From assembly GCF_053078305.1 (NCBI RefSeq), contig NZ_CP166879.1: a stretch of DNA of 64,000 nucleotides; one strand, given 5' to 3'. Position 1 is the stretch's first letter. Every line of letters begins with the position of its first letter. This document shows, one piece after another, positions 6,001 through 12,000 of this stretch. Position numbers: made by a program.

Positions 6001-9000
6001 CCAGGGCACAGACCTGTGGGGTATGGACACCTGAAGAGCCCGGAGAGACGGGGTACAGTGGGGTGATCAGCAGTATAGGGGATCAGACTGCTGCAGCCCC
6101 GGTATGGTGGGTGGTGGTTCATAAATTGTCGAAAGGTGTCACCCAGGCGGCAGTGGCTTCGATTCCGTGCCGGCCTGATTTGCGCCAGTTGCGTTTTGAG
6201 ATCCAGCGAACGTTTATAGAAAACAGGGCACTTGCTGATGAGCTGCAGGACTTTATGAACGACTGTTATTCACTGGCACTGTATGTGGAAACAGCGTGAT
6301 CAGGGGCAGAGTAAAGATAAAAAAGTGCTTGATGATATCTCCTGGATAGGGAGCGCCACATTCATGCAGGGGGATTACGGGACGCTGCAGTCAAAGATGC
6401 CGCGGGCTGCGTTCCCGTGGAATACAGCACGTGACAGCGGACGACCGGATACGGGGCGGGGAGGCTATCCGACATGCCGGGAGTGGTGGAGTGACAGTAG
6501 TGTGGGGCTGAAAAAACGGGTCATGGAGGAGGTCAGTGACCATTACTGGTTACGTCTGTCAGCTGCAATGAAGATGATTGGCAGTAGTCAGGTGGATTAT
6601 AAGGAGGAGGTGATCAAGCGTCTGGTGAGTCCGGCAAACCTGACGCTCTCTCAGGGGGGAGAGGTGTATCGTGGCTATGGTGGCAATGCAGATATGACGA
6701 CTATGAATGCGGTGGCCCGGATTGCGGGAACGGCGGGCAGTGCGGTAGCAGCACTGGGTGCGTTTCCGGCACTGGATGCAATGCGGCAGGCACTGCCGAT
6801 GGTACAGTCGATAATACTGATGGCGATTTACATCATGATACCGCTGATTCTGGCGTTTGCGGCATATGAACTGTCGACGTTAATCACACTGACGTTTGTG
6901 GTGTTTGCGGTACACTTTCTGACGTTCTGGTGGGAGCTTGCACGGTGGCTTGACAGCTGGATGCTGACGGCGCTGTACAGTTCGGATACACATACCCGGT
7001 TCAATATGATGGGATTCCAGAACACATCGGATGATCTGATAATGAATCTGGTGATGGGGACAATGTTTCTCGTCTTGCCGGCAGTGTGGCTGGGTGCGTT
7101 GTCCTGGGCTGGGGTGAATATGGGCTCTGTGGTTGGTGATACTTTTGGAAAAAGTACAAGTCATACCTTTCAAGCTGCATCAAAAAGTGGTGATCTTGCA
7201 TCTAGTGGAATTTCAAAAGGTATGAATAAATAAGAAAAAGTCCAGTATAATTTATACTGGACTTTTTGAATAAGTATCATCATATGAAAGGCGTTTTTAT
7301 TTGTGTTGGTGAAATAAATGGAGATTCAATTTCTGATACAAATGGTGATTTATAAGATAGGTCTAAGGGCATGTCGTTATTATTTTTAATAACTGAAGCA
7401 GATTGTTTATTAGCCAAAAATGCACAAGTGACCTTTTTTACAAGGGAGTTGAAGGTCCATGGATTATCCATCGGCTTACAACGCCACATTGCTTTTTCAG
7501 ATTCGTTATTCATATCTATACCCTCGGCGCAGGATAAATAACACAGTGTTATCATACGTCTTGTATGATAAATGTGCAATCACATGTCTTCCATTTGATG
7601 AGAGGCTGTGACGCCACATTACCTTGGGACACGGGGATTCTGTTGAAATGATCCATCTGAGAATGTATCTTGTTGTTATGTTATAACATGGGTGAAGACA
7701 GATGAAACCAAATATCCATCCTGAATACCGCACAGTAGTGTTCCATGACACGAGTGTGGATGAGTACTTTAAAATAGGTTCTACCATCAAAACAGAGCGC
7801 GAGATTGAACTGGACGGTGTGACGTATCCGTATGTGACGATTGACGTTTCCTCCAAATCGCATCCGTTCTATACCGGTAAACTTAGAACGGTGGCATCAG
7901 AAGGCAATGTTGCCCGCTTTACTCAGCGTTTTGGTCGTTTCGTTGGGACTCAGAAGGGGGAATGATGAAAGTGCTTAATTCTCTGCGAACGGCCAAAGAG
8001 CGACCTCCTGACTGTCAGATAGTGAAGCGCAAAGGGCGATTGTATGTAATTTGTAAATCCAATCCTCGTTTTAAGGCTGTTCAGGGACGCAAAAAAAAGC
8101 GTTGATTCCGAAGCTTGTACATAGACTGTGAGCAGTGCTCAGACATGATTTATGTCGGTACATTAGCATTGATGTGTGTCGGCATTAATTAATTTTTGTG
8201 GATGCGTTCTATCATTCATATCTTCCTGTGCTTTGCTGCTTGATGGGAAATCCTCTTCCAATATCACGGCGATGTTCACTTTTTGCGTAAGTGGACATCG
8301 CTGCGTATTTTTTGTTAGTTGGGGTTTGAGGCTCAGTGGAACAATAACCGCCGTTAAGCGGTCATTTTAAATAGCCAAAAATCAACCCAAAAATCAACCA
8401 GCCAATTTACATCGTGAATCTGCGTTCTTGGCTATCTGTTTTGGGGGGGCCAAGTTGGCTTTAGTCATCCTGGCCGTTTGCGGAACAAAAGACGTTGTTG
8501 ATCTCAACAGATTGATTTACCTGTTATTGACCATTCAATTGAACCGCTTAACCGCCTTTTGAGTTCCACTACTCCCCAAACCCCTAGTTTAGTTTTTAGT
8601 TTCCAACGGTGGTAATTTTTCAAGTGTCAGTAGTTCCTGCCCCTTTACCCGACGGCATTGGGAAGCTGCATCCTGAAGTTTTTCGCGAACGTTATTATCA
8701 TAGTCGGGATCCAATAGTTGGTATTGAAGACTATCTTTGTATGATTGAATGATATTTAGTGGACAGATAAGGCGTATATCACCGAGTGAATAAAGTTTTA
8801 CTGCCTTAAGTAAATAGTATTTTTCATCTGAAGAGCGAGCACTCTGCCAGGCTGAGTTTCTGAAATATTCAGCAGGATATGAGGTGGTCGGTATTCCATA
8901 AACATGAGGAGTCAAGTCCATGATTCCTGATATTTTAAGGAAAATAGTTAGTATTAGAGCTGGAACCATATGCACAAACGTAAAAATGAAGGCTAATATT

Positions 9001-12000
9001 CCAGCCATGATTCCGCCAGTCACAATTACCTGATTTAGCAAGCTGGTGCGGGTTCTTAACCTGAGGAAAACAATACAGGGAATAAGTGAAAAAATAATCA
9101 GAAGAATTGATAATACTATAACACTCAACACCTGCCAGAACTCGTTTATTCCTTCCGGGAATTCCAACGTATGAAGAAATAACTCAAGAGGAATAATATA
9201 TATGCAGGCTGCGTGGGTGAATAGCGTTGACTGTACAATATGCATGGAAAGAAACTTTTTGATCTGCTTCCACTTACCCTCTGTGCTTATCTGTCTATAA
9301 GTAATAGAGCCATTGAGACACAGAGAAAGTATAAAACTGCAAATCCAGATAATGCTTAACTGAAGTAGCACATATTGTTCAATTTCTTTTCCTGCGTTGT
9401 ACATGAGGAAAAAATAACCAAAAAATATCAGTGTTGATAATAGCGAGGTCAGAAGAACGATTTTGATGTTGTTTTCCGTCAGTTCATTCCGGAAATCACT
9501 TTCCCCTGGATAATTGGAAATATAGAATCCTGCCACTAGTGAGGGCATAAATAACGCCATGCAAAATAGGAGTACGCTGATACAAGCAAAGACCATCAGA
9601 TAACTGAACAATGATGAAAAAGAAATACTGTCAAAAAAAAGTCCTGTTTGTCCAATACGCGCAAGATGTGACCATATAAACAATGCTACAATAGAAGTTG
9701 ACGCGATCGGTGTAAGGATTGTTAAAAACCAAGCACATAGTTTTATAAAATGTTTGTTTACTCTGTAATTTTCTATATTTTAGTGTCCATTCAAAGTTTG
9801 ACATATGATCTAGCTAATGACTCCATTTTTGGGCATTGCTTACCAACATACCTCTTATGTGTATTACTGTGAAGGAGAACGATGAATAGCGACTATTCAC
9901 GTGGATCTCCACAACAACCATCAATATTCCAGCCATTATCATTCCCGGTATCCTTACCGGCATTACCTGTAGAATCGGTTATTGTTGTTGCCCTATAACA
10001 CACTTTTGTGGCTATAACGTTTATAGCTATCGACAAAAAACCATATTAATTCTTTTGGAAAAAAGAAAATAAGGTATCCATATAACAACACCAAATATTC
10101 CACTCACTAATAATCTGATATTATCTGAATCCAGCTGTACGTCAAAAAGAATAGCCGGTAATAAAGTAAGATAGAGAGCAATAATCAGTCCTGTTGCATA
10201 ATAAGCGATCATGGCTTTTCGAGTTCCTTTTTTGCGTCTGAAAAACAACCACGTTGCATAAAGGGAAACAATGAATCCACATATCAGCAACACAAATGCC
10301 CCCATAGCGTAATAAGATAAAAAGCCAGTTTCATTGAAATAATTGAATGCAGTTATGGTAAAACTGTAAAGTTCAATAGTACTACCAATAACACCCAAGA
10401 TAAGTCCCAGAGCAGGAAGATATAATAGTCCATTAATTTTACTTAACTCTTCTCTTTCACAGGCATCACACAATCCCGACTCTTTGTTTGCTTCTGACAT
10501 TTTACATTTTATACATTCCATTTTTTATTCCATTATTCATTGCGTTACGATAATGTTTAGTTTTTTAAACATCCCCCACCACATGTATGGGGATTGTTGC
10601 AAATCTCACTTAGGATCTGATGGTGTTTTCTTACGGGAGTTAAATTTATCTATTAAATTAAATACTATTGTAGCTAATGTTATTGCTGTTCCTGCTATAC
10701 AACCAAAAACGATAGCTCTTTTAAACTGATTCACTGGAAAATAAAACCCATCACCTTTAAAAAATAAAAGATTGAAACCGCCCCTCCCAGAAATAGTAAC
10801 ATGACTATAGATGATAAACAGCTATAAAGGAACAATATCACATAACTATATAGTTGTTTCATTTTTTCTTATCCTCTGACGAACCTTTCGGTTTATTGAG
10901 TTATTGGCTCCTTCAGGTAACTCACCTTTGGCAAGTTTATCCAGTCCTGCCTGCTTCTGTTCCGAGGTGAGATTATTGGCATCAGCATACTGATTCCATG
11001 AGGAAACCGCCTGACCATAACTCACCATTCCTGATGGAAGACTGAGCGAGTTATTCTCAACAACAATCCTAACCGCAAAGGTTGGGATTGTTGTTAATCT
11101 CACTCAGGATCTGATGGAGGTTTTTTACGAGAATTAAACTTATCGATCAGATTAAAAACTATCGCTGCTAGTGTTATCGATGTACCTGCTATGCACCCAA
11201 ACACAATAACTCTTATCATTTGGTGGGTCGGGAAAAAAAAGAATCCTTTTGTTAGGTAAATAAATAAAGCTCCTCCCCCCATCAAAAGAAATCCACTGAT
11301 GATACAAAAGAGGCATGCATATATGAACAATACAATGTAAGCAATCATTTCCCCTCCTCCTTCTTCGCGCTAGAAGAGAACTGATTATTACTACTTGCTT
11401 CTTTTATATATCCACCAAGAAATTCACTACCAAAAGATCCTGTCGCATCAAATATAAATCCCGGAAACTCTTTCCCAGTAACTGAGTTTACTATTCCGGG
11501 AGCATATACTCCAAATGCTCCACCCAATCCGGCCCCGGCAGCAGCCCCTCCAATAGAGCCTGTATTTGGACCATCGGTAAAGAATGCACCACCCATCGCA
11601 ATTCCGACGTTTTGTCCGACAGTTCTCCCCGGCGCAAGCATACCCGCAATGCCTGAACTGGCACTGCTTTTCCAGTCCCAGTTTTTGTTTTCATTACCTG
11701 GCTGGCTTAAATCAAACCACTGGTAACTTCCATTGGCTATCTCCGCGACGACTCCACCACTGACCATTTTACCGACCGAAGCAGCAGGCCCCAGATACCA
11801 TGCCCCGGCAATCATTACACCATCCTGATATCCATCCACGATCACTTTCGTGATATTGGTGCTGTCCGGCATATCACCTTTCGCTATCTTATCCAGTCCA
11901 GCCTGTGTTTGTTCCGGTGTCAGATTATTGTCCACCGCGTACTTGTTCCATGATGTAGCCGCAGCAGCATTGCTTTCAAAACCATCACCGAAGCTGAGCG

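Follow-up and report, generated by a model that had tools for sequence, protein, structure and literature searches.

A cassette-linked DUF2569 gene and a gene of an unnamed gammaproteobacterial membrane protein family lie downstream of a CDI locus in Escherichia coli

Introduction

Immunity to ionophore toxins is membrane-embedded as a rule, and the CdiI proteins that protect against ionophore CdiA-CTs are two-TM hairpins of 72-100 aa, highly polymorphic, toxin-specific and only about 30% identical within a group; in published assays cdiI alone neutralises these toxins (PMC11630599). In a limited sample of the CDI literature, DUF2569 goes unmentioned and has no experimental tie to CDI, and for the DUF2569 family in general we found only incidental mentions and no function. 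Some CDI loci encode further proteins: CdiC is a lysine acyltransferase that lipidates CdiA, and BcpO is a lipoprotein. Prophages and plasmids encode membrane proteins for superinfection or entry exclusion, such as P22 SieA, HK97 gp15, T4 Imm and F TraS.

Here we analyse a window of 64,000 nucleotides (NCBI RefSeq assembly GCF_053078305.1, contig NZ_CP166879.1) that carries, as part of an E. coli ICE, an intact cdiB-cdiC-cdiA-cdiI locus and, downstream of it on the minus strand, two membrane protein ORFs. A preliminary description had proposed both as candidate orphan immunity proteins against membrane-acting toxins, or as serving other self-protection functions. With a probability of roughly 0.55, we favour the reading that they are two independent accessory genes, a DUF2569 gene of generic function and a member of a family for envelope exclusion or defence, neither being an orphan CDI immunity gene of the usual kind.

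Results

Organization of the CDI locus and its downstream genes

The CDI part of the window comprises the following features.

11100..22582, minus strand: intact CDI locus (ORFs; a near-identical locus as annotated in RefSeq)
20843-22582, minus strand: cdiB (ORF)
20306-20833, minus strand: cdiC, lysine acyltransferase (ORF)
11345-20290, minus strand: cdiA with a glycine-rich ionophore-type CT (ORF)
11100-11348, minus strand: cdiI, 82 aa, 2 TM (ORF)
10846..11103, minus strand: orphan cdiA-CT stub, VENN motif plus about 45 entry-domain residues, ionophore domain deleted (translation)
10606..10862, minus strand: orphan cdiI (85-aa 2-TM type) with an inactivating 1-nt deletion (sequence)
10027..10521, minus strand: DUF2569 (YdgK-family) gene, 164-aa zinc-ribbon inner-membrane protein with 4 predicted TM helices (ORF, Pfam, hydropathy)
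10459..10515, minus strand: zinc-ribbon codons, CxxC-x11-CxxC, Cys3, 6, 18 and 21 (read from the sequence)

The window cdiA-CT is related to the CDI ionophores as described in PMC11630599. The orphan CT stub resembles ionophore CTs that are intact in Shimwellia, Trabulsiella and Enterobacter, and the orphan cdiI measures 271 nt against 272 nt in intact alleles (85-aa allele as reference), sharing a 179-nt direct repeat with the main cdiI region of the window. The preliminary description thus placed the DUF2569 gene correctly behind orphan CDI remnants; it was equally right in its end coordinates and in calling the two ORFs, 8589..9683 and 10027..10521 on the minus strand, co-oriented and low in GC (0.339 and 0.374, respectively, versus 0.561 for cdiA). 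The two genes belong to different modules, which meet at about 10023-10027: similarity to the remaining E. coli DUF2569 loci runs out at window position 10023 (query position 1724), just past the DUF2569 stop. With homology stopping there and the homologues of the larger gene lying outside CDI in all other sampled contexts, the notion that the larger gene is CDI-related finds no support. Recombination at the DUF2569 stop would have brought two unrelated genes together.

The DUF2569 gene encodes a conserved zinc-ribbon membrane protein

A profile search assigns the 164-aa protein to Pfam DUF2569 (PF10754) over its full length (E=1e-33, model positions 2-143 of 143), in agreement with its RefSeq entry WP_001562756.1, "DUF2569 domain-containing protein". 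The N-terminal zinc ribbon and four TM helices described earlier are both borne out: Cys3, Cys6, Cys18 and Cys21 are at least 90% conserved in an alignment of 29 homologues, all four are retained in 27 of 27 subfamily loci checked and are present in a more distant DUF2569 subfamily too, and the hydropathy profile shows four hydrophobic segments, with a K/R-rich loop separating TM2 from TM3. The predicted topology is N-in/C-in with 4 TM helices. A C-terminal motif, IPYF..SKR...F, is also conserved among homologues, and the 164-aa subfamily is tight and confined to Enterobacterales.

DUF2569 is a recurrent distal-end gene of cdi loci

Among 29 subfamily loci of at least 42% identity, read from 26 species, 15 have cdiA-derived sequence on the same strand at most 8 kb upstream of the DUF2569 gene. 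CDI-linked loci come from Shimwellia, Pantoea ananatis, Edwardsiella, Trabulsiella, Enterobacter, Rosenbergiella (five), an Erwinia MAG and Yersinia (three), and in Mangrovibacter the gene stands 0.8 kb upstream of cdiB. Overall, the subfamily lies just 3' of cdiA-derived sequence in at least nine enterobacterial genera besides E. coli, usually directly behind a pair of ionophore CT and cdiI, and the linkage is kept down to 45% identity and in different genomic sites. Co-occurrence with CDI is thus recurrent for DUF2569, whereas the larger gene is CDI-adjacent only in five E. coli genomes. DUF2569 is a conserved distal-end gene in one enterobacterial lineage of cdi loci.

An ionophore CT and a 2-TM cdiI lie immediately 5' of DUF2569 in E. 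coli, Shimwellia, Trabulsiella, Enterobacter and Edwardsiella, and in the closest clade the ionophore CT, the small 2-TM cdiI and DUF2569 form a three-gene cassette. R. nectarea carries upstream an ionophore CT/cdiI and then a second ionophore CT that lacks its own cdiI; in P. ananatis a CT remnant lies upstream, and the cdiI stop overlaps the DUF2569 start; the cdiBAI-DUF2569 block of Shimwellia is an insertion adjoining yfiB; and orphan cdiA fragments follow the DUF2569 block in Edwardsiella and E. coli. Three Rosenbergiella loci, the Erwinia MAG and Yersinia have something other than an ionophore cdiI as the immediate upstream neighbour. Toxin/immunity cassettes are swapped upstream of DUF2569, and in the window an older CT/cdiI has decayed with DUF2569 left intact under purifying selection (dN/dS against orthologues, 0.15-0.45). 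DUF2569 occurs in 33 of 5426 E. coli genomes (36 places), compared with 781 that carry the cdiA pre-toxin segment. Its constant upstream neighbour in this species is the 85-aa cdiI type, which is found in 38 genomes (42 places) and co-occurs with it almost 1:1; some loci keep the same cdiI type with DUF2569 deleted. Among plasmids, 13 records hold DUF2569 and 48 a related ionophore CT.

One or both membrane proteins might be orphan immunity proteins left by displaced CDI modules and directed against a specific membrane-acting CdiA-CT, given that both genes follow orphan CT/cdiI remnants, that several genera show DUF2569 in physical linkage with ionophore CT/cdiI cassettes and that membrane-embedded immunity is the rule for such toxins (PMC11630599). 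We consider this highly improbable. CdiIs are 72-100-aa, 2-TM proteins of about 30% identity, whereas DUF2569 is a 164-aa, 4-TM protein that is 49-88% identical between loci, as against 19-56% for the adjacent CdiIs, and its conservation is independent of CT/cdiI type. Moreover, a cdiI is already present between the CT and the DUF2569 gene, which has no preceding toxin fragment of its own and is absent from most related ionophore CT loci (the 13 versus 48 and 33 versus 781 above). As for the larger gene, outside the five island-sharing E. coli genomes not one sampled homologue lies beside CDI. Collectively, the linkage to cdiA, the conservation above that of CdiIs, the dN/dS values and the 33 versus 781 genomes lead us to conclude that the DUF2569 gene is a cassette-linked, non-polymorphic accessory or passenger gene and not a specific orphan immunity gene; a generic self-protection role of another kind, also raised in the preliminary description, is possible.

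Alternatively, DUF2569 may have no part in CDI: after a single capture at the far edge of a mobile cdi island it might have hitch-hiked with an unrelated function of its own, incidentally offering cassette exchange a homology arm on the downstream side. Roughly half of the subfamily is found without a CDI link in ordinary chromosomal contexts, in genera including Cedecea, Pluralibacter, Siccibacter, Pectobacterium, Brenneria and Providencia, and the low count in E. coli, the deletions from loci that keep their cdiI and the indifference to CT/cdiI type agree with such a passenger. In addition, related loci are non-independent samples, and a single ancient linkage passed on by transfer could account for much of what is seen. 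However, members as low as 45% identical retain the linkage, across at least nine further genera and at differing sites in the genome, the DUF2569 start overlaps the cdiI stop in P. ananatis, and a rough, weak NJ tree of the 164-aa protein intersperses CDI-linked with unlinked members, a hint of repeated association. The absence of any CDI role is possible, if rather unlikely. In the reading that we favour, DUF2569 would act generically, without binding one particular toxin, and may be an auxiliary membrane factor that assists cells producing membrane-active CdiA-CTs, perhaps through support of their very small, hydrophobic CdiI. At the least, it would serve as a conserved downstream flank for cassette recombination.

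The larger gene has lost its start codon

The second module comprises the following features.

9777..10026, minus strand: upstream region of the 396-aa gene module (partial similarity upstream to a Klebsiella locus)
8589..9776, minus strand: gene of an uncharacterised family of about 396 aa, predicted 7 TM helices plus C-terminal periplasmic domain (homologues, alignment, AF2, RefSeq)
9774..9776, minus strand: ATA replacing the family ATG start, G>A (DNA and protein alignment)
8592..8918, minus strand: C-terminal alpha/beta domain, residues ~287-395, about 105 aa (AF2 secondary structure)
8763-8765 and 8655-8657, minus strand: Cys338 and Cys374, the sole residues invariant across the wider family (alignment)
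8321..8584, no strand: 264-bp miniature element, imperfect inverted repeats, Tn3-family-like ends (inverted-repeat search)

The protein was initially read as 364 aa, an artefact of taking the first ATG, GTG or TTG: each of the 37 close homologues has about 396 aa and starts with MEN..., the frame is open back to 9779, and RefSeq annotates a 395-aa CDS at 8589..9776 (WP_032156182.1). In a DNA alignment, ATA at 9776-9774 aligns with the ATG of Klebsiella, Pectobacterium and Pantoea; the next in-frame canonical start after 9776 is TTG at 9683, within TM1, and ORF 8589-9683 represents the 3' 92% of the gene. With the start ATG mutated to ATA, the full-length protein would probably be made at a very low level in this E. 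coli lineage, if at all.

It is quite conceivable, although not our preferred reading, that the gene is a decaying remnant here, functionless in this genome whatever the family does elsewhere. Relative to all homologues, it shows both the ATG>ATA change and a one-residue deletion in TM1 (TP-IAST). It is flanked by the recombination junction and by the Tn3-like miniature element, which starts immediately after the stop codon and whose inverted repeat has 61-nt arms that are 70% complementary, one arm agreeing at 31 of 38 positions with what we take to be the Tn3 IR. In fourteen other E. coli genomes, only related fragments of about 300 nt occur, which match the 3' end of the gene at 74-76% identity. 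Yet the 395-codon frame is otherwise intact, with no internal stops or frameshifts, and is 99.8-99.9% identical across five E. coli genomes, and ATA is able to initiate translation at a low level in E. coli.

The 396-aa family is a mobile membrane protein family

A search of 1.84 billion proteins retrieves 133 representatives at E<1e-3, which constitute an unnamed gammaproteobacterial family. Profile searches, productive for the 164-aa protein, gave no match for the larger one in Pfam, NCBIfam, PADLOC or PHROG, nor did the PDB; no likeness in sequence or fold to phage or solved proteins, no transporter or enzyme family match and, in scans of viral contigs, no homologue was found. The AF2 model (pLDDT 92.1, pTM 0.86) shows seven TM helices and a beta/alpha domain; the earlier reading as a membrane protein therefore stands, but "polytopic" understates it, as about 105 aa at the C-terminus form a soluble domain. 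The loops follow the positive-inside pattern by K/R counts, and we infer an N-terminus in the cytoplasm, seven TM helices and a periplasmic C-terminal domain. In a 92-sequence alignment, C339 and C375 (Klebsiella numbering) are invariant, with W311 and P340 nearly so, and the Cys pair probably forms a disulfide. Conserved positions cluster on the predicted periplasmic face; the TM domain contains no polar residue that is invariant.

Apart from one chromosomal case, a distant homologue adjoining an OprD-type porin, sampled homologues occur alone on plasmids, ICEs, islands or a P2-like prophage, where another distant homologue sits between tail-fibre assembly and sheath genes; 1271 plasmid records carry a homologue. 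Most homologues are directly beside anti-phage or toxin-antitoxin systems. PADLOC-scored neighbours include a dCTP deaminase (E=6e-144), the KAP NTPase PDC-S20 (E=4e-78), BovA of Borvo (E=2e-207) and SIR2-like and LmuA-like proteins, with Septu in the same prophage; McrBC is a further neighbour, and CBASS, TIR, DUF4411/XRE, WYL, a restriction endonuclease and VapBC adjoin plasmid copies. The exact gene adjoins a CDI locus only in five E. coli genomes with this ICE arrangement, and CDI linkage was seen in no other sampled context. In those other contexts the homologues lie outside CDI and toxin loci, but none has an assigned unrelated function, so the case against a CDI role comes from context and not from a function assigned elsewhere.

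Judged by its neighbourhood, the likeliest role of the family would be at the envelope, in excluding or defending against phage, or DNA or protein of other foreign origin, as it enters the cell. That it has no part in defence is unlikely: it would then provide immunity to a bacteriocin or effector that is encoded elsewhere and acts in the periplasm or membrane, or belong to the plasmid backbone as an envelope protein for transport, envelope modification or entry exclusion. Both the conservation on the predicted periplasmic face and the porin-adjoining member fit such a role, as does the pairing with a divergent tyrosine recombinase, which lies about 250 nt upstream on three plasmids and, with a small ORF between, about 370-680 nt upstream on two E. 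coli IncFIB plasmids. On these five sampled plasmids the pairing is constant and the adjoining cargo varies, and the copies on plasmids may not be cargo but conserved "anchor" genes of the backbone at a cargo hotspot. However, the gene itself looks like variable cargo in islands, ICEs and the prophage, no sampled locus has an adjacent toxin gene, and the lack of a transporter or enzyme match and of invariant polar TM residues speaks against those options.

Discussion

The closest described relative of the DUF2569 protein is YdgK of E. coli K-12, with which it shares the full-length PF10754 match, four TM helices and the C-terminal motif. YdgK occupies a core chromosomal site, whereas the window gene belongs to a mobile CDI locus and, unlike YdgK, to the tight Enterobacterales-restricted subfamily of 164-aa proteins; the N-terminal CxxC...CxxC zinc ribbon is presumably absent from YdgK. 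Like DUF2569, CdiC of class IV cdiBCAI loci and BcpO of Burkholderia bcpAIOB loci are non-polymorphic extra genes of some CDI lineages, but they have no sequence relation to DUF2569, which stands at the distal end of its locus. The 396-aa family resembles the exclusion proteins SieA, gp15, Imm and TraS in being encoded by a stand-alone inner-membrane gene in cargo positions of mobile elements and in a conserved surface predicted to face the periplasm; with seven TM helices and a folded periplasmic domain in the model, it is much larger. Its likeness to the anti-phage systems of PADLOC 2.0 (dCTP deaminase, Borvo, PDC-S20, McrBC, CBASS) is one of neighbourhood only, and no member matches any PADLOC 2.0 model. 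The ionophore CdiIs (Halvorsen et al. 2024, PMC11630599) share with DUF2569 an inner-membrane location and a position on the same strand 3' of an ionophore cdiA-CT; DUF2569 differs from them in its 164 aa, 4 TM helices and zinc ribbon, in its place after cdiI and in its conservation across unrelated CT/cdiI pairs.

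Neither membrane-protein gene is likely to be an orphan immunity gene

The two membrane-protein genes downstream of the CDI orphan module had been proposed, from their position after toxin and immunity remnants, as candidate orphan immunity genes, a reading that fails for both in the comparisons made here: protein format for both, an intervening cdiI and conservation relative to CdiI for the DUF2569 gene, and a recombination junction for the 396-aa gene. The 3.1 kb around both genes matches, at 100% identity, the chromosomes of four E. coli strains that are Shiga-toxin-type or bovine; 237 E. 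coli genomes match other parts of this 3.1-kb query, and 33 carry the DUF2569 gene proper. The CDI block belongs to the cargo of an integrating conjugative element (ICE) whose TIGR0375x-type transfer genes end at ~7233, and the presence of cdiC between cdiB and cdiA makes the locus cdiBCAI. In the window, the block and its edge are organized as follows.

20843-22582, minus strand: cdiB of the CDI locus
20306-20833, minus strand: cdiC, toxin-activating lysine acyltransferase type, between cdiB and cdiA
11345-20290, minus strand: cdiA, 2981 aa, with a glycine-rich C-terminal toxin region (CT)
11100-11348, minus strand: main cdiI, 82 aa, two hydrophobic helices
10846-11103, minus strand: orphan CT stub, VENN kept plus ~45 residues of the entry domain
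10606-10862, minus strand: orphan cdiI, second copy, with a 1-nt deletion relative to the intact 85-aa allele WP_000812110
10027-10521, minus strand: DUF2569 gene, 164 aa
ending at 8589, minus strand: larger ORF (the 396-aa gene), last gene of the block
8321-8584: 264-bp miniature element with 61-nt imperfect inverted repeats at its ends (GGGGTTTGAGGCTCAGTGGAAC...), directly abutting the stop codon of the 396-aa gene

The preliminary description is largely accurate, save for how long the second gene is and where it begins. Both genes are co-oriented with the CDI locus and low in GC (0.34 for the 396-aa gene and 0.37 for the DUF2569 gene, versus 0.56 for cdiA), and the orphan module does consist of a CT stub and a damaged second cdiI. 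The single-base deletion inactivates this orphan cdiI, the intact form of which is found in ~30 other E. coli genomes, and leaves the adjacent DUF2569 gene untouched. A hairpin with a 16-bp perfect stem lies 3' of the main cdiI stop (window 11059-11095). The 3' half of cdiI, together with this sequence downstream of it, occurs again after the orphan cdiI as a 179-nt direct repeat (74%; window 10568-10746), which suggests the cassette boundary used in displacement. Since a promoter and terminator scan gave a result no better than shuffled controls, no operon is claimed, and an Rfam search of window 7000-12000 returned no match.

Other cargo was also observed. Window 7702-8105, between the ICE transfer module and the two membrane-protein genes, encodes paralogues of L31 type B and L36 type B (ykgM/ykgO), which are zinc-independent ribosomal proteins, and a predicted lipoprotein of 153 aa (window 1140-1601), made up mostly of three tandem ~29-residue acidic repeats (…VKDAVEEVKTQAAGKVAEVSEAAQSGLSE…), is encoded upstream of the ICE transfer genes. 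The ends of the 264-bp element resemble Tn3-family terminal repeats, and the element is presumably a Tn3-derived miniature.

The DUF2569 gene recurs at the distal end of cdi loci

Profile searches assign the 164-aa protein to Pfam PF10754 (DUF2569/YdgK; E=1e-33, score 117, residues 27-163 on model positions 2-143 of 143), and the same domain is present in 48 of 48 homologue clusters. These clusters form a compact 164-aa subfamily that, in a search of 5.8 billion proteins, is found only in Enterobacterales. The CxxC zinc ribbon and four TM helices first described for the protein are borne out: Cys3, Cys6, Cys18 and Cys21 form a CxxC-x11-CxxC arrangement, with the four cysteines kept in all members checked, and hydrophobic segments span residues 26-47, 65-95, 103-131 and 134-156. 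A strongly basic RKKGTRK loop connects TM2 with TM3, and we infer a small four-TM inner-membrane protein with this loop in the cytoplasm.

When the DNA around subfamily members from 26 species (29 loci) was searched with the window CdiA, cdiA-derived sequence was found on the same strand less than 8 kb upstream of the DUF2569 gene in 15 of the 29 loci, the linked ones being from Shimwellia, Pantoea ananatis, Edwardsiella, Trabulsiella, Enterobacter, five Rosenbergiella, an Erwinia MAG and three Yersinia. Placement on the same strand, at the distal end of cdi loci, is thus seen in nine genera in addition to E. coli, the loci being phylogenetically non-independent; it speaks for the gene as a conserved accessory gene of cdi loci, a class proposed here rather than an established family. 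In Shimwellia, a cdiB-cdiA-cdiI-DUF2569 block is inserted beside yfiB, and the DUF2569 gene is therefore part of the island; in Edwardsiella and several E. coli loci, more orphan cdiA fragments follow the gene, placing it inside the locus. In Mangrovibacter (locus L028, 8001-11995), the gene lies ~0.8 kb upstream of cdiB-cdiA, rather than downstream of cdiI.

In E. coli, Shimwellia, Trabulsiella, Enterobacter and Edwardsiella, which belong to the closest clade (identity of 59% or more), the DUF2569 gene immediately follows a small two-helix cdiI, and upstream of that cdiI is a CT rich in glycine zippers, of the CDI ionophore type described by Halvorsen et al. 2024 (PMC11630599). The window ionophore CT would, at a guess, belong to group 3 (AcrB-dependent). 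In P. ananatis, a CT remnant is kept and the stop codon of the cdiI overlaps the start of the DUF2569 gene; in R. nectarea, an ionophore CT/cdiI pair is followed by a second ionophore CT, which lacks its own cdiI and directly precedes the DUF2569 gene; in the Erwinia MAG, the preceding genes encode a nuclease-type CT, its immunity protein and a macro-domain protein. At the ends of the cdi loci of two Rosenbergiella species and Yersinia frederiksenii, the DUF2569 gene is directly preceded by one or two weakly related lipoprotein genes (27% identity, pairwise E=4e-7), at the following positions.

L024, 6806-7689: lipoprotein gene or genes before DUF2569
L025, 3637-4520: lipoprotein gene or genes before DUF2569
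L037, 7303-7863: lipoprotein gene or genes before DUF2569

These lipoproteins have no match in Pfam or NCBIfam, and their genes may constitute a second conserved distal module.

The linkage is partial. About half of the subfamily resides in ordinary chromosomal contexts with CDI genes absent nearby, for instance adjoining glyA (Cedecea), fimbrial genes (Pectobacterium, Brenneria) or glnS/nagE (Providencia). Of 5426 complete E. coli genomes, 33 have the DUF2569 gene (at 36 places, 30 of them full length), and one cdiI type, present in 38 E. coli genomes, co-occurs with it almost one to one; however, the cdiA pre-toxin segment is found in 781 E. coli genomes, and in PLSDB 13 records carry the DUF2569 gene versus 48 with this ionophore CT type. 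By these genome and plasmid counts the gene is missing from most loci of the CDI system.

A non-polymorphic companion, probably not an immunity gene

Ionophore CdiIs are hairpins of 72-100 aa, share ~30% identity within a group and are sufficient for protection (PMC11630599). Neither protein has this two-helix format, one being of 164 aa with four TM helices and a zinc ribbon and the other of 395 aa with seven TM helices. In the closest clade a cdiI, intact or frameshifted, always intervenes between the CT and the DUF2569 gene, and the gene there does not directly follow a cdiA-CT. Nor does the DUF2569 gene co-diversify with the toxin as CdiI does: identity over all pairs is 49-88%, versus 19-56% for the neighboring CdiIs (87% versus 27% between Enterobacter RIT418 and E. 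coli), and pairwise dN/dS is 0.15-0.45. Being more conserved than the adjacent cdiI, rare, and without CDI in about half of its subfamily, the DUF2569 gene is unlikely to be a CDI immunity gene. A role of its product as a mimic of the toxin's receptor was also considered; six CDI ionophore groups are published, each with a receptor, and the idea was set aside because other receptors are thus already known for all six.

The evidence supports a third gene, non-polymorphic, that accompanies some CT/cdiI cassettes (ionophore ones in the closest clade) and marks the distal end of one cdi-locus lineage. Its product may contribute to CDI, or the gene may be merely a conserved flank. The CDI association itself is real and apparently unreported: the gene is not mentioned in the CDI papers examined, and in the literature collection searched "DUF2569" appears in a single paper, as a table entry.

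The 396-aa gene is a separate module with a mutated start codon

The second gene had been described as a 364-aa membrane ORF; the ORF is real, yet its length and start were misjudged. Its 37 close homologues are of ~396 aa and begin with MEN(N/E)R, the window frame is open to 9779, and RefSeq annotates a CDS of 395 aa from ATA, the window reading ATA at 9776-9774 where Klebsiella, Pectobacterium and Pantoea DNA reads ATG. The allele also has one residue fewer in TM1, with the remaining frame intact. With ATA replacing ATG and the next canonical start lying inside TM1, this strain probably makes very little full-length protein, or none.

Window matches to other E. coli DUF2569 loci end at 10023, just beyond the DUF2569 stop codon, and the exact 396-aa gene occurs in just five E. 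coli genomes, all sharing this ICE arrangement. Judged from these alignments, the 396-aa gene is a module separate from the DUF2569 gene, lying beyond a recombination junction. That the two genes form a pair was considered and rejected: outside this ICE, neither family's loci carry the other family. Separately, unannotated ~300-nt fragments in 14 E. coli chromosomes (e.g., NZ_CP029574.1, 3852169-3852470) share 74-76% identity with the 3' end of the 396-aa gene and cover the C-terminal domain only; they appear to be remnants of a different family member, located elsewhere in the chromosome.

Among 1.84 billion representatives, a profile search identifies 133 relatives (E<1e-3), the full-length ones nearly all of 370-436 aa. 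In the AlphaFold2 model computed with a 92-sequence alignment (pLDDT 92.1, pTM 0.86), a beta/alpha domain (residues ~288-386) comes after seven long TM helices. In this alignment the sole invariant residues are two cysteines of the C-terminal domain, with W311 and P340 nearly invariant; the TM core contains no invariant polar residue, and conserved motifs map to the first periplasmic loop, the TM5-TM6 loop and the C-terminal domain. Loop charges fit the positive-inside rule for an N-in, C-out topology, which places the cysteine pair in the periplasm, where it is plausibly disulfide-bonded.

Profile searches, informative for the DUF2569 protein, leave the 396-aa protein without a family: it matches no Pfam, NCBIfam or PHROG family and no solved fold, the Pfam search having been run with the protein alone and as the 92-sequence alignment. 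NCBIfam, PADLOC and PHROGs gave nothing usable for both proteins and ten distant relatives, and PADLOC 2.0 at E<=1 gave no match for the window protein, its Klebsiella homologue P0004 or eight distant members; a weak Csx1 match of one plasmid copy in PADLOC 2.0 (E=0.01) is regarded as noise. Foldseek against AFDB50 retrieves just unnamed members of the same family, and no member was found in two viral-contig scans or by tblastn of a phage collection.

Most sampled contexts of the 396-aa family include defense or toxin-antitoxin systems

In a Klebsiella island, the family gene adjoins McrBC and SIR2-like/LmuA-like genes; in a Pectobacterium ICE, it lies between ArdC/CcdAB and BovA (Borvo, E=2e-207); on Pantoea plasmids, it is flanked by genes for a KAP NTPase (PDC-S20, E=4e-78) and for a dCTP deaminase (E=6e-144); and on a Cronobacter plasmid, it follows VapBC and a restriction endonuclease. 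A distant member is encoded in a P2-like prophage, which also carries Septu, on the opposite strand between tail-fiber assembly and sheath genes, which we take to be the position of the P2 Z/fun conversion gene. One further member is chromosomal, beside an OprD-type porin, and the contigs of two homologues (P0091 and P0106) are just 1-2 kb long.

By tblastn, 1271 plasmid records contain a homologue, mainly E. coli IncF plasmids and many N-terminally truncated. On several plasmids the family gene borders variable cargo and is paired with a tyrosine recombinase in a conserved divergent arrangement.

L076, L079 and L080, ~4750-7140 each; L068 and L078: tyrosine recombinase and 396-aa-family gene, on Enterobacter, Vibrio and E. 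coli plasmids

The recombinase is ~250 nt from the family gene on the E. kobei, V. parahaemolyticus and E. ludwigii plasmids, where the variable cargo after the family gene includes CBASS, TIR, DUF4411/XRE and WYL genes; on two E. coli IncFIB plasmids a small ORF intervenes and the distance is ~370-680 nt. L076 also has the colistin-resistance gene mcr-10, on that side of the pair where the recombinase is.

A recognized defense or toxin-antitoxin system lies within 6 kb in 8 of the 11 distinct contexts sampled, a descriptive count rather than an enrichment statistic; none lies within 6 kb at the two E. coli IncFIB loci and the OprD-linked chromosomal locus, and no toxin gene stands beside a family gene among the sampled loci. 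This neighborhood pattern is of the kind used for nominating defense genes and, together with the periplasm-facing conserved surface, makes envelope-level exclusion or defense our best guess for the family, by association.

Discussion

The broadest reading would be that the 396-aa protein founds an unrecognized single-gene envelope exclusion or anti-phage family, with seven TM helices and a disulfide-bonded periplasmic domain, carried in the defense hotspots of more than 1,200 enterobacterial plasmids, in ICEs, in islands and in a P2-like prophage, and that, in parallel, the zinc-ribbon DUF2569 protein may be a generic third component of CDI ionophore cassettes. This reading is less likely than not, at a probability of roughly 0.3. 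For this genome the implications are more limited: the DUF2569 gene is an ordinary accessory gene of a DUF family, and expression of the 396-aa gene is probably very low. The 396-aa family at large is well folded, widespread and unnamed in databases, and is found beside Borvo, dCTP deaminase, CBASS and McrBC, which makes it a cheaply testable candidate for a new envelope-level defense or exclusion function.

CDI loci of this kind have been described as comprising cdiB, cdiA and cdiI, sometimes with cdiC. A conserved, non-polymorphic membrane-protein gene such as that for DUF2569, carried along with ionophore cassettes, would add an unreported accessory component to this set or mark the downstream recombination boundary, and either role would help to explain cassette exchange and the tolerance of producers to membrane-active toxins.
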